64,000 bases of DNA from Amoebidium appalachense (GCA_963693365.1 CAVNZM010000003.1:15297143-15361142), one strand, 5' to 3'; positions 57,845 through 64,000 are shown, counted from the first letter of the stretch. Numbers and translations are program-made. The notes: a model not told the origin generated them from the sequence alone.

Positions 57845-59470
57845 GGTTGGGGGGGGGGGGACGGTAAAGGCGGGAGGCGTGATGAAAAGTGTGGAAATGC
57901 GCGGTGAAATATGCGTGTTGATTGATAATTTTGTTGTTTGGTTGCATGTTGTGTTGGGTTTGATGGGTGCTGGTTAAGCGTTTTGTTCTCCTGTGTAAGG
58001 GGGTGGATGGGTGGGTGAGAAGAGGGCAAGGGGGGGGGGAGGGGAGGGGGGGGGGGGGGGGGGTTCTTGATAGCAACCGAGCTACGATGTGTATGTTTCT
58101 AGAACATGGTAAATCGGGCTTAGGCCAAGAACAAAGTGACATAGTTATGCCTCTGTATGGATACGCGAGATGGTTCAAAATTTGGGGGTTATTAGTCGGA
58201 AAAGTGCATGGGTTAGGTGGCAGTGTGATAGAAGGAGGCAAGGAATATAAGTACCACATTTGATTATCTAGGACAGAGTTATTCATACATATAGGCTTAT
58301 GCTCTTGCACATTGGCTTTGTGTTGCTTGGAAGGTGTTTTGTGGTTAGGTGGGTGCCTGTGCAAAATTCGTGAAGACTTCAAAAAAGCAGCCCATTCTTA
58401 AACGATGATACTTTTAAACATAGGTGCAAGACAAAGCGGTACTATAGCATCATGTAGAGAGATGGTTATGTGAGCAAGGGCACTATATACCCATTATTAC
58501 AAAGTTGGTCATATATATTGTTGGAGAAGCCTTTTTAGTCGGATGAGAATATAAATAACGCTGTGAACAAGAGAGCTGGTGTGCAGGTGTGTATTGATTT
58601 ACTAAGTCTTGTATACGTATCATGGTTGGGTCCCCATATGGTCATGAGATTCCTAATTGCTATCTAGGCGGGTGTGGAGGTGTGTGTGTGTGTGGGGGGC
58701 GGGGGGTTGCTCAGTTCGCACACGGCCCGACATGTATACGTACATTCTTGCATCTGACAGAAGCTGTGATCAATATCAGTCTGTCTGGTGCTGCCGCCGG
58801 ACTTGCCCCAGCGTGCGCGCGCAAACATACTTCTCCGGTATAGTTCGAAAAAAGAAAGAAAGTGGACGGTCAAGGACAGGGGCTGGGAGCAGAGGAGGAG
58901 GAGTGGGGAGGGGTGTGTGGGTGTGTGTGTGTGTGGGGGGGGGGGGGGGGGGGGGGGGGGGGGGATGGATTAGTGGCTAAGTTGCGGTTATGCGCTACAT
59001 TCTAGAAAAGAAGGAAAGAAATGGAGTTAAAAGAGCCCAGCCTCCTTAGAGATGATTATGAGTACTGCTGAGGGAGAGTCTACCCGGTGGTGGTGGTGGT
59101 GGTGGTGTGTGTGTGTGTGGGGGGGGGGGGGGGGGGGGGGGGGGGGGGGGGGGGGTCCGGACATGGCCAAACAAACTTCTAATGCTGAACTTCGAAACTT
59201 TCAAAAAAAAAAAAACCAAAAAAAAAAAACCTATAACTAATGAAGAAAAAGAAGACCGCCCTGGGAAGGAAGAGAATCATAAGTTAAGAAAAACTTTCCT
59301 TGAAGGAATGAAAAAGAGCCCAGTCTCCTCCTCGTTGCTGCCGGTGCTCAGGTACCCGACAATAAATTATGTTTTATATCTGATTATCCGCTGTCAAGCT
59401 TCTGACTGTATATCACAGGTTTGGCACACATGTTGATTCAAAGTTGTTCTTAAATGTTCGCCCGGAGCTT

Positions 59471-59597
59471 TACTGCATTGTATGGGTGGCCATGATAATG
59501 GTGGTACGGCATCACCTGGACACCGACGAGGAACCTTGCACGAAAAACTTTTACATTTTCACTACTTCGTGCAGAACCTCGGGCCTGCCGGCCACCC
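59471..59597 (-). ncRNA. Putative small structured RNA, array 2 copy A
   Basis: Element GATTGTGG at 59646-59653 (56 nt). Perfect stem: GGGTGGCC 59484-59491 with GGCCACCC 59590-59597. Hairpin TGCACGAA..TTCGTGCA. Confidence 0.65.
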
Positions 59598-60180
59598 AAA
59601 CTCAGATGTGAATACCTGAATTTCGAAAACAATTTTGGAAACTAGGATTGTGGGACTCAGCAGCCTGTCAGACTGTGTGGCCTTAACCTCATGCGCTAGT
59701 GCGGTACTATAAAGTTTAACGTGTGGTGGTGGTGCGTGTGTGTGTTTGTGTGTGTGTGTGTGTGTGGAGGGGGGGGGGGAGGGCGGGGGAGGGCGGGGGA
59801 GGGGGGGGGGGGGGGGGGGGGGACGGAGATATGATGTGTATGGTTTTATAAGATGGTAAAACGGGGCTAGGCTAAGAGCAAAATGTTAGTGTTGACCGTC
59901 TGTATGGATACTCGAGAAGGTTTGAACTCAAAATTTAATGGGATTTTGAATGGCTAATTTTTTGGCAGCCGATTGCTCTTAGCTGGTTGGTGTGGGGGGC
60001 TAGGGTCTGGTAGAAGAAATGTGATAAATAAGTCCCACATGATTACCTGATGAAAGAGTTATGGACATGATACGCTTCTCATACGGAGTCTCGTGCATAG
60101 TTGCAGTGTGCGTGTTGTTGCTCGGAAAGTATTTTGTGGGTAAGTGGGCGCCTGTATTTGCGGAAACTTCAGAAATATTT

Positions 60181-60308
60181 TGCTGCACTCTGTGGGTGGC
60201 CGCGAATTACGCTGGGCCCAACTTTCGTTGGCTTCTTCGAGTTTCTCTCTGCACGTGACGCTCTTTTCCGACTTTATTCCGCATAGCTATATGCTGCCCG
60301 GGCCACCC
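60181..60308 (-). ncRNA. Putative small structured RNA, array 2 copy B
   Basis: GATTGTGG at 60361-60368 (60 nt). GGGTGGCC 60194-60201 with GGCCACCC 60301-60308. 3' motif TGCAGCA on the - strand. Confidence 0.65.
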
Positions 60309-60358
60309 AAACTCAATTTATCCAACCTACAAGCCAGGTTCAAAAATATTTTCCGAGC

Positions 60359-60371
60359 GTGATTGTGGGAA
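60359..60371 (-). promoter_or_regulatory. USE/DUSE-like upstream element (representative array 2 copy)
   Basis: Reads TTCCCACAATCAC on the - strand, 60 nt upstream of the stem. Confidence 0.55.
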
Positions 60372-61109: not shown

Positions 61110-61303
61110 TGCTGCCGTGGGCGGCACCAAAACTAGGTAGGTGGCCATGCATACAAGTAGCAATTATTTTGCAAGAACAAAATAGTGCCAAGCCCACTCA
61201 GATGCCACGAACAGCAATTACCTTGCTGCATACAACATGCTGCACTTAAAGCTTCTTCAAGCTTTATTTCGTGCATTTTGACTGAGTGCAAGCTTGACCA
61301 CCC
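61110..61303 (-). ncRNA. Putative small structured RNA, array 2 copy C (3' end ambiguous)
   Basis: GATTGTGG at 61353-61360 (57 nt). GACCACCC 61296-61303 pairs with AGGTGGCC 61139-61146, or with GGGCGGC at 61119. Hairpin TGCAC-T-TAAAGCTT-CTTC-AAGCTTTA-TTTC-GTGCA. Confidence 0.55.
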
Positions 61304-61946
61304 GACCTTATAGCCGTGAACATTGGACATGCTCGGAACAAGTTGGGTACATGATTGTGGGAAGCATCGTCACGGTGTCCACACAACACAACCACATCAT
61401 GAAGGTCGATGCAGGAAAGTGAAACTGCAATTATGTATATGTTGACTAGGTCTTGTTGTTGGCAAGGCATCCTCTGTAATAGAGAAAGGCTTATACTGTT
61501 TCTTTTTTTTTTTTTTTTGGTACCGTTTGTAACATATTTTAGCTATTGGACGGAGAGAGTATGACATAATAAGACGAATGATGCATACACAAGTTGAGCA
61601 GGAAACTGTTGAACTGTTATCTTGTGTATAACCTGTATAACCTGAGAAGGAGACTCTAGCAGATATATATGCTGGTCCATGTAAAAGGCACTGCGACTCG
61701 GTGACATGCTAGGACGATGTAACAGTTGTTACATTGACACTAACGGGCTTTGGAAAGGGAATTTTTTTCAAGGAATTTTAGTTCAGTCGGGGCATCTGAA
61801 AGTGCAAAAACACCGACCGAGGGGGGAGGGGAGGGGCGTGGATTCCCAGGACACAACAGATAACTAGATGCTACTTCACATAATGGTTGATTGACAATAC
61901 TACCCGTGCATAACTTTTTGAACAGGAACTATTAAACTTGAATTTT

Positions 61947-62068
61947 TGCTGCATCCTATGAATGGCCATTGATTGTGTGGATTCACAGGCAAACCTGCAT
62001 GAACATGATCCACAGAATGGTTCTCAAACCCATTTCCGTGCACAACGTGTGAATGGAGCTGGCCACCC
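61947..62068 (-). ncRNA. Putative small structured RNA, array 2 copy D
   Basis: GATTGTGG at 62121-62128 (60 nt). On the - strand GGGUGGCC pairs with GGCCAUUC through G-U pairs. 3' motif TGCAGCA. Confidence 0.6.
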
Positions 62069-63769
62069 AACATTGAAGATGTGTATACTGACCAGAAAGA
62101 TAAAGACAAGTTGAAAACTTGATTGTGGGATTTAACATATGCAGCCTGTCCTCACAATGTGAGCCTGATGATGACAGTTAAAACGCTGCAGCAAGCCGCG
62201 TGCCTAATCGGCCCTCAGTATACGTTTAGGCTTTGTCTTAAACTAGACTGACACTGTGCCGCGTTTTCATATATAGTCGAGGTAATGGCGTAGGAAAGGC
62301 AAGTCATTGTCAGGAGCAGAAGGTATTTCAAGGATAAGTGGTCTCAAATGATTAACAAGTCGAACATGATAAACAGTCATTTATTCAGATTAGAAGGATT
62401 ACGAAGAACCCGGTTTCAGACTCATGACATATCCCCCCCTCATGGTCTCACCCTGAAACTGGTTCTTCTGTTCTCTCCTACTGTTAAACTGAATAAAAAA
62501 CTGGTTATGAGTAGCATTGTTCTCTCCTACTGTAAAACTGAATAAAAAACTGGTTCAATGAGTAAGATTTAATCCCCCCCCCCCCCCCCCCTTCTCTCAT
62601 GCCAACTCTGGAGAAGACGAAAAGGCCTAGGAAGTGATTGGTACAGGAATGATTCCCGGTGGCACTACACGCACACATTCTCTCTCCCTCTACCTCTCCC
62701 TGATGCTCTCCCTCTCCCTCTCACATTTTTCTCCAAGGCCGAGCCTCTTATTAATATTCTATGTCTCAATTTTTGTTTTTCTTCGTCTTCTTCTTCTTCT
62801 TCTTCTTCTTCTTCTTCTTTTTTTTTTTTTGATAGTGGGGGGGGGGGGGGGGGGGGGAAGAATAGGAGGAGGGTGTTGGACGGGGGGGGATTACAAGTCG
62901 GTGGGAGGTGGAAGACTGGGGGGGGGGGGGGGGGGGGAGGGGGGGGGGGGGGGGCAGGGATGGGGGGAACCGGCATATAATCCATAAGTGGGTGTGGTCG
63001 GTTTTGTAATCATCGTTGTGTCTTGGACACACGGTGAGCTGCAGCATGTACTAACAGAAACATCATTCACAACAACGTTCAACTTGAAATCATAACTTTC
63101 GCGCACACAAACACGCCCGTGCGTGCGCGCACATGCACACGCGCGCACGCACACGCACGACACACACACACACACACACACACACACACACACACACACA
63201 CACACACACACACACACACACACACACACACACACACACACACACACACACACACAGACGCACACAGACGCACGCACACGCACACACACACACACACACA
63301 CACACACACACACACACACACACACACACACACACACACACACACACACACACACACAAATACACACACAGGGTGCAACTCAAGATGCACATTAAATCAT
63401 GCTCAACCTCCCCCCCCCCCCCGAACCCAATTAATTAGCTAGCAAGTAGCTTACTTTGATTTCGTGATGAAATCTCAGCGTTAGAAGAATAACTTTACCA
63501 AAATATGCCCCCCCCCCCCCCCCCCCCCCCCCCCCCCCCCCCCCCCCCCCCAAAAAAAAAAAAAAAGAATAAAAAAAGAAAAAGTATGGGGAAAAAAAAA
63601 AACAGAAAAACAGAACTACCAACATGACTGCAAAAAGAAAAAAAAAGAAATAAAGAAGGATCTTGCCTCCTAGTGACCGTCTTTATGATGATCGTAGTAC
63701 ATATTAACACAATCTTCAGGTGCCTAGGCCTAAAGGATTTTGCACAGTTTTTCTGTTGTGATTACCTTT

Positions 63770-63891
63770 CGCTGCACTGTGAGGATGGCCAAGATTGGTG
63801 GGGACTAAGGTCCCTGCACGTTTAACGGCGAACAGATGCACGTAAAGCCTTTTCAGGCTTTGTTTCGTGCATAGCTATGAGCCAGCCACCC
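63770..63891 (-). ncRNA. Putative small structured RNA, array 2 copy E
   Basis: GATTGTGG at 63944-63951 (60 nt). On the - strand GGGUGGCU pairs with GGCCAUCC. Hairpin ATGCACG..AAAGCC-TTTTCA-GGCTTT..CGTGCAT. Confidence 0.65.
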
Positions 63892-64000
63892 ATACTCGGT
63901 GTATCCGAGCCCAAACGTCAGGTTTGCAAAGGTTTTCGTGCCTGATTGTGGGAAGCAACTGGGTTCCGAATTGTGACTGTTGCCCAAATCCCCGGCCGCT

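Follow-up and report, generated by a model that had tools for sequence, protein, structure and literature searches.

A head-to-tail array of predicted small nuclear RNA-type genes in Amoebidium appalachense

Layout of array 2 and its five units

We analyzed a 64,000-nt stretch of the Amoebidium appalachense genome (GCA_963693365.1, CAVNZM010000003.1:15297143-15361142; hereafter the window), in which two sets of repeated units, array 1 on the + strand and array 2 on the - strand, follow a common upstream element. Array 2, the subject of this study, most likely codes for an undescribed family of non-coding RNAs of the small nuclear RNA (snRNA) type. It consists of five units, A to E (labelled from the window end), which run head-to-tail on the - strand between 59,472 and 63,953, starting about 1.6 kb beyond the end of a VTC-domain gene on the opposite strand and reaching to 48 nt from the end of the window. 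Array 1 served for comparison; two of its units (elements at 9432 and 15336), either without a clear closing stem or with a very short body, were excluded from all alignments and counts. The coordinates of both arrays are collected in Table 1.

The original prediction had described five - strand units with a common element, three of them with the same spacing of 60 nt. Exact CCCACAATC was present in all five units, and array 2 accounts for five of the window's 10 exact copies. The offset from element to stem was 61, 61, 58, 61, and 57 nt in units A to E, i.e., equal in A, B, and D, while successive elements from A to E were 1823, 768, 992, and 715 nt apart. Every unit has the same order of parts: element, a conserved A, the first strand of an 8-bp closing stem, an inner hairpin, a variable domain, the second stem strand, and TGCAG. 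The conserved A sits 52 to 56 nt downstream of the element in every unit and precedes the stem by 5 nt in each array-2 unit and in 9/10 array-1 units (14/15 in total), and in array 2 the base step before it is always pyrimidine-purine. The bodies, whose two ends are joined by the stem, measure 109 to 165 nt in array 2 and 79 to 153 nt in array 1, and the array-2 copies are about 55 to 60% alike.

When CCCACAATC was searched by itself as a 9-mer with one mismatch allowed, it was not enriched in the window (38 matches versus 29.5, with 9 of 100 shuffles as high). A pattern combining element and stem, itself derived from the units, gave six matches versus 0.01 expected. Upstream of the element, similarity among the array-2 units was low (mean z 1.2, no pair above 3), and a weak second motif resembling TTGTGAGGA was seen there, 15 to 25 nt upstream of the element, in units B, C, and D (62135-62160, 61375-61395, and 60375-60395, - strand). 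A direct repeat with 49-nt spacing lies between units A and B (62469-62555).

The predicted 3' motif TGCAG(C/T) was found 6 nt past the stem in A, B, D, and E (4/5), whereas unit C carries TTTTGG there. This unit, the sole one without TGCAG, has a run of four T at that exact place (61127-61138, - strand) and a TATA-like TATAAG just before its predicted start; a different end signal may have replaced TGCAG in this unit, or the unit may be decaying.

Table 1. Coordinates of the units and predicted parts of arrays 1 and 2 within the window.
Feature	Position	Strand	Remarks
Unit A upstream element TCCCACAATCA, predicted SNAPc-type proximal or upstream sequence element (PSE/USE)	63943..63953	-	motif match; exact CCCACAATC starts at 63952
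Unit A predicted RNA, 114 nt	63783..63896	-	A at 63896; closing stem 63884-63891 with 63783-63790
Unit A inner hairpin, GAAA loop	63837-63871	-	unit fold z -3.5
Unit A 3' motif TGCAGC, predicted 3'-end signal	63771..63776	-	6 nt past stem
Unit B upstream element	62120..62130	-	motif match; exact CCCACAATC starts at 62129
Unit B predicted RNA, 114 nt	61960..62073	-	stem 62061-62068 with 61960-61967; inner hairpin 62009-62042
Unit B 3' motif TGCAGC	61948..61953	-	
Unit C upstream element	61352..61362	-	motif match; exact CCCACAATC starts at 61361
Unit C predicted RNA, 170 nt, enlarged variable domain	61139..61308	-	stem 61296-61303 with 61139-61146; inner hairpin 61241-61275
Unit D upstream element	60360..60370	-	motif match; exact CCCACAATC starts at 60369
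Unit D predicted RNA, 120 nt	60194..60313	-	perfect stem 60301-60308 with 60194-60201; weak inner hairpin 60250-60283
Unit D 3' motif TGCAGC	60182..60187	-	
Unit E upstream element	59645..59655	-	motif match; exact CCCACAATC starts at 59654
Unit E predicted RNA, 119 nt	59484..59602	-	perfect stem 59590-59597 with 59484-59491
Unit E inner hairpin on long extended stem	59537-59573	-	unit fold z -4.0
Unit E 3' motif TGCAGT	59472..59477	-	
Array 1	7876..23166	+	ten full units and two with degenerate or short body
Array-1 elements of full units	7888, 10204, 11902, 12761, 14230, 17386, 19311, 20685, 21771, 22935	+	
Array-1 elements with degenerate or short body	9432, 15336	+	

Conservation, pairing, and relation to array 1

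Sequence identity among the five array-2 units was distributed in blocks. Pairwise identity reached 100% for the element, 95% and 82% for the two stem strands, 90% and 82% for the two sides of the inner-hairpin base, and 68% for the 3' motif; the promoter spacer had 39%, the variable domain 41%, and the flanks 33 to 38%. The bodies were homologous to one another in pairwise comparisons (mean z 5.9, 8/10 pairs with z>3). Such block-like conservation is, as read from the sequences, the pattern of purifying selection on old duplicates. Flanks and spacers had both been described as lacking similarity; this held for the downstream flanks (mean z -0.28, 0/10 pairs with z>3) but not for the spacer between element and stem (mean z 2.35, with 5.4 for A-D and 4.4 for B-E).

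In the closing stem of array 2, GGGTGGYY pairs with GGCCAYYY located 101 to 157 nt further on, and the two strands are exactly GGGTGGCC/GGCCACCC in units D and E (2/5). All 40 stem cells are paired, 34 by Watson-Crick pairs and 6 by G-U pairs, with no A-C. The G-U pairs occur two each in A, B, and C, without any mismatch, and would become A-C if the + strand were read, in agreement with the claim that the wobble pairs work on the - strand only. Also as claimed, the stem differs from that of array 1 by two compensatory changes, U-A versus C-G at pair 4 and G-C versus A-U at pair 6. The six G-U pairs and the orientation of the element are the basis of our strand call, since folding energy did not discriminate between the strands, and together they modestly support assignment of the units to the - strand.

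The inner hairpin of array 2 is 34 to 37 nt long, with an A-rich bulge and mostly a GNRA-like loop. Its proposed closure by TGCAC/GTGCA was found in A, C, and E (3/5), whereas B has one mismatch and D is short by 2 nt. Compared with shuffled sequences, the bodies had folding z-scores of -4.65 (A), -5.35 (C), -3.15 (D), and -3.22 (E), and with the ends included the scores were -3.5 (A), -2.1 (D), and -4.0 (E), so that four of the five units fall below -2.

Covariation was assessed over six stem pairs in the 15 units of both arrays. Here, 90% of cells were paired, compared to 80% in shuffled and 38 to 53% in slid controls, and 13 cells with double changes were counted, a result seen in none of 500 shuffles, with four pairs showing double changes. 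Most of the double changes are the two swaps between arrays, inherited by many copies; the others are G-C to A-U in two array-1 units, plus one G-C to C-G. Within array 1, cognate pairing beat permuted pairing with p 0.02 for Watson-Crick pairs only and p 0.07 when G-U was included. Together, the block conservation, the stem drift by G-U pairs only, and the covariation over 15 units support the proposal that structure and promoter geometry are under selection.

The original prediction regarded array 2 as a diverged subfamily of the array-1 element. This is supported in part, for the promoter and the RNA ends, while the interiors are unalignable. We compared the arrays by reciprocal single-array models. 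A covariance model of the ten array-1 bodies matched 0/5 array-2 units at E<=10. An array-1 sequence-only model that included the promoter listed 4/5 units, but only B at E<0.01 (E 0.0003, spanning the element through the 5' stem strand); the matches to D (0.08), A (1.5), and C (8.6) covered the promoter portion only, and E was missed. In the nhmmer control, D and B scored 7.5 and 6.2 bits, respectively, versus a maximum of 4.4 in 100 shuffles. Conversely, the array-2 model with promoter ranked array-1 sites first among its non-training matches, two of them full-length (14200-14447, E 0.004; 17364-17610, E 0.06).

Array-1 matrices, of which the stem-anchored one also left out the unit at 22927, recognized the array-2 5' ends with p 0.001-0.003 in B, D, and E and with p 0.05 and 0.09 in A and C. 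For the 3' stem strands p was 0.001-0.02, a value not independent of the 5' strand. The inner hairpins of both arrays have similar lengths, closed by TGCAG/CTGCA in array 1 and by TGCAC/GTGCA in array 2. Array-specific clades had been expected, and a tree did split the arrays at 100/99, though the interiors behind the tree barely align, and such a split fits distant kin and unrelated sets alike. By sequence comparison, then, both arrays have the promoter in common, their ends and layout resemble each other more than chance would allow, and the array-1 and array-2 RNAs likely descend from a common ancestor.

Three local features of array 1 were also noted. A block duplication occupies 7876-12061, where the units at 7888 and 9432 resemble those at 10204 and 11902, flanks included. 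At 15336-15430 (+), the element is followed by a minimal unit, one short hairpin plus a TGCTGA motif, which may be the family's smallest form. The upstream element is duplicated at 22927-22943 (+), and its second copy restores a 61-nt offset to the stem.

Proposed gene type and alternatives

The core of TCCCACAATCA is the same as that of the SNAPc upstream elements of protists given in Table 1 of PMC8287931 (ACCCAYAW, GNCCCAYW, and TCCCAWCATC). According to the available parts of PMC8287931 and PMC5493778, TATA-less promoters of this type recruit RNA polymerase II (Pol II), with transcription ending via a 3' box, and a PSE common to Trichoplax genes is described in the accessible portion of PMC2655684. 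No TATA box was found at -45..-15 in any of the 15 promoters of both arrays, and 4/5 array-2 units had no TTTT within 100 nt past the stem; Pol II is predicted because TATA box and T-run are both lacking. Array 2 thus resembles the Pol II snRNA genes and protist USE promoters outlined in PMC5493778 and PMC8287931, as far as those texts extend, in its CCCAYA-type core element, lack of TATA, and short motif after the predicted end. It differs from these genes in having no conserved Sm site and no match to a U snRNA model, its copies are only about 55 to 60% alike, and its 3' motif is unlike the human 3' box as given in the part of PMC5493778 at hand.

A second resemblance is to the Class I RNAs of Dictyostelium. 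As described in the accessible text of PMC7919456, these are multi-copy, intergenic, clustered, and non-identical genes, like the units of array 2, with an element approximately 60 nt upstream of the start (here 57 to 61 nt from the stem), a stem of the 5' and 3' ends kept by compensatory changes, and a variable interior; their upstream element, DUSE, was compared by its description in that text (a run of two to three C) rather than by consensus letters. The same source gives Class I RNAs a length of 42 to 65 nt, a 6-bp stem, a conserved unpaired 11-nt motif, often downstream T-runs, and a distribution in Dictyostelia only. In array 2, the predicted RNAs are 114 to 170 nt long, the GC-rich stem has 8 bp, the inner hairpin is conserved, the 3' motif is TGCAG, Rfam gives no match, and the host is likely a holozoan. 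The 11-nt motif, which in the text of PMC7919456 stands beside the 5' stem, has no counterpart, the array-2 region being 39% identical, and the ends of the units differ from the AAG start and CUGU end of Class I RNAs. Because length and 11-nt motif both fail, we place the units outside the Class I family, and the best reading of the gene design is a Class I-like build outside that family.

On this evidence, the observation is confirmed, and the units are a selected multi-copy element. We consider it probable that they are separately transcribed snRNA-type RNA genes; the full account, kinship with array 1 included, we favor only slightly. SNAPc would bind TCCCACAATCA, and Pol II would start at the conserved A or one base earlier. 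The TGCAG motif with its A-rich surroundings might, conjecturally, act as a 3' box that yields a non-polyadenylated end. The predicted product would be an RNA of 114 to 170 nt, its ends paired in the 8-bp stem, that folds into a closed multi-branch shape. Since the constant stem and hairpin surround a variable domain, a shared protein frame with copy-specific partners can be envisaged: the stem and the 34-37-nt hairpin could, speculatively, bind a protein set common to all copies, while the variable domain would give each copy its own partners or targets, making up a family of regulatory ribonucleoprotein scaffolds. The array would have grown by local tandem duplication of whole genes, from an old ancestor likely held in common with array 1; promoter, ends, and layout would be all that can still be recognized of this ancestor.

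For 61050-62560, no RNA data set with a match was listed, and no small-RNA run. Three of three RNA runs (X1-X3) gave no contigs on unit D (59880-60460); these runs look like mRNA libraries of this organism and are uninformative either way; they look so because of a spliced ALYREF intron (X1 and X2) and poly(A) ends at RPS29 (X1), both seen in contigs of one sample over a control stretch. A number of results weigh against the account above. Unit B folds no better than shuffles (z +0.4), several array-1 stems have a low pair probability, and antisense sequences fold about equally well, with a better z on the + strand in 3/4 units tested. Stem pair probability favors the - strand only in A and C and favors the + strand in B. 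The six G-U pairs of the stem are perhaps 5 events. The array-2 stem has no true double change, and permuting partners alters nothing there, the permutation test being powerless in this array, while the covariation between arrays amounts to two or three inherited events, which can beat shuffles without structure. TGCA is frequent in the window, at 7.3 per kb. With respect to kinship, the array-1 RNA-body model misses all five array-2 units, the interiors are unalignable across arrays (mean z 0.24; 1/50 pairs with z>3), and the 3' motifs, with matrices built from 6/10 array-1 and 4/5 array-2 units, match between arrays only marginally (p 0.03-0.3).

These last results fit two unrelated snRNA-type classes, alike only in their promoter and in generic constraints on the ends, in the way that U1 and U2 have a PSE in common. 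That the body model matched 0/5 units, that the matches to D, A, and C covered the promoter alone once it was included, that the interiors reached a mean z of just 0.22-0.24, and that array 2 lacks the ACCCAA linker motif seen in array 1 would all follow from two such classes. However, they would not account for the same A at -5, an 8-bp stem starting with GGG in which 6/8 consensus pairs are alike, a TGCA-closed hairpin of similar size and place in both arrays, and two array-1 units matching the array-2 model over its full length, and we regard two separate classes as unlikely.

It is less likely still that the units are Drosha/Dicer precursors of small silencing RNAs, each with its own promoter. 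Ichthyosporeans possess Drosha, Pasha, and microRNAs (miRNAs) according to the consulted part of PMC6206976, and the miRNA genes of Sphaeroforma resemble array 2 in being ichthyosporean hairpin RNAs; units A and E, moreover, have extended inner stems of about 57 to 72 nt. But B and D form no long stem, the conserved hairpin is just 34 to 37 nt with a bulge and a short loop, and the terminal stem and 3' motif are better conserved than any 22-nt arm. The Sphaeroforma genes are eight dispersed loci set by 20-26-nt duplexes, for which the accessible text of PMC6206976 mentions neither a common upstream element nor a terminal stem or an array. A text search of the three supplements of that paper gave none of the unit motifs, a weak point as this text is possibly partial.

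Another rather improbable explanation is that the units belong to a known RNA class (snoRNA, Y RNA or stem-bulge RNA (sbRNA), vault RNA, a U-snRNA variant, or telomerase RNA) from which they have strongly diverged. Y RNAs, nematode sbRNAs, and vault RNAs are clustered, individually promoted RNAs of about 100 nt with paired ends and a variable loop domain, and they are transcribed by RNA polymerase III (Pol III), carry U-tails, and have TATA or internal boxes. In array 2, U-tails (4/5 units), TATA and internal boxes, and an Rfam match are absent. RNAs of such classes do use the same promoter type, as stated in the available text of PMC8287931 and PMC5493778. Rfam models can miss protist homologues, and an ANA triplet follows the stem in 3/5 array-2 units, as CTGA does in array 1; the first three bases past the stem are TCA, ATA, ACC, ACA, and ATA in units A to E. 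In box H/ACA snoRNAs, the last hairpin is followed by an invariant ACA, and a pocket pairs with rRNA. Nevertheless, Rfam gave no match in the window at the gathering score, U snRNAs included, and the matches listed at E<=10 lay off the unit bodies, mostly in microsatellites. ARAGORN reported nothing on the units, and ungapped repeat finding returned only 22-36-nt motif families and microsatellites.

In scans with consensus motifs of the known classes, neither an Sm site nor a box C, an A/B box, a telomere-template 7-mer, or a 5' splice site was conserved among the predicted RNAs. An Sm-like match occurred in 1/5 array-2 units, such matches in array 1 mostly overlapped the stem at the predicted 5' end, and a splice-donor-like match was found in 2/15 units. 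Three candidate classes were rejected: Sm-class snRNA, spliced leader RNA, and U7, for lack of a conserved internal Sm site or 5' splice donor; Pol III type-3 RNAs (Y, vault, 7SK, MRP, and telomerase RNA), since TATA, A/B boxes, and oligo-T are absent, with a T4 run only in unit C; and box C/D snoRNA, as box C was found in 0/15 units and terminal CTGA in none of array 2.

That the units are untranscribed DNA-level relics (a non-autonomous transposon, a Helitron-like element, or decayed tandem duplicates) has an equally low probability. In favor of relics, the genome is microsatellite-rich, the 8-bp stem could be taken for a terminal inverted repeat, both strands have about the same folding energy, and transcripts were not seen. 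Against them, no target-site duplication was found around the stems, each array has one orientation with no copy in the 36 kb between them, and conservation is block-like, with a fixed external element and drift by G-U only.

If array 2 indeed holds snRNA-type RNA genes, the 64 kb would contain at least 15 diverged genes for structured RNAs, each with its own promoter, and these would represent a third regulatory RNA layer beside miRNAs and long non-coding RNAs of intergenic origin (lincRNAs), in a lineage used for studying animal origins. The accessible part of a 2024 review (PMC11286789) names only miRNAs and lincRNAs as ichthyosporean RNA regulators, and the available text of a Sphaeroforma small-RNA data note (PMC11109566) has no such loci. 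Judged by title or the start of the abstract, no paper in the literature covered, which leaves out most subscription journals, deals with such arrays in ichthyosporeans. A design of SNAPc element, terminal stem, and variable core, thought to be unique to Dictyostelia, would recur in close animal relatives. The element would give direct access to all snRNA-type genes in this lineage and would be a candidate for a native promoter with which to express small RNAs. If array 2 and array 1 share an ancestor, they would also form a record of family diversification in which ends and promoter were kept and the interior replaced. More tentatively, and with considerable doubt, ichthyosporeans might carry a large, diversified class of mid-sized RNAs with snRNA promoters that poly(A) and small-RNA sequencing have missed; this class would correspond in holozoans, through convergence or a deep common design, to the Class I RNAs that are linked to multicellular development in social amoebae, and its subfamilies would regulate the cycle from coenocyte to cellularization.

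Neighboring genes and other matches

The window contains GT-AG introns and many microsatellites. The gene that flanks array 2 (approximately 49,200-57,850, +) is intron-rich and encodes a 674-aa, polyphosphate polymerase-like protein with a VTC domain, and its best named relatives include fungal Vtc4 and a protein labelled 'Ihof', a prefix which we take to stand for Ichthyophonus. A tandem repeat of about 40 nt lies in one of its introns (53300-53570). Between the arrays, an intronless RPS29 gene (28780-28950, +; best match a Creolimax fragrantissima protein with 86% identity) stands head-to-head with a gene that is ALYREF-like by eye (24457-28285, -). The relatives of the VTC-domain and RPS29 proteins point to a host that is likely an ichthyosporean. 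The intron of the ALYREF-like gene at 27434-28104 was spliced in RNA contigs, and an unspliced contig across it was also observed.

Searches outside the window gave two sets of matches that we rejected. The single metagenome match (L001) falls inside a 266-codon open reading frame (29-829, +), whose 266-aa product is TIR-like by eye, and was judged to be chance. Among three viral matches (L002-L004), none was matched by the array-2 model over the match region (best E 0.056, elsewhere). Two further genes in the window were assigned by eye: a multi-exon gene at approximately 1000-6480 (+) resembles class C G protein-coupled receptors with a solute-binding ectodomain, and a gene at 38074-40730 (+) resembles RING E3 ligases with a PA domain.

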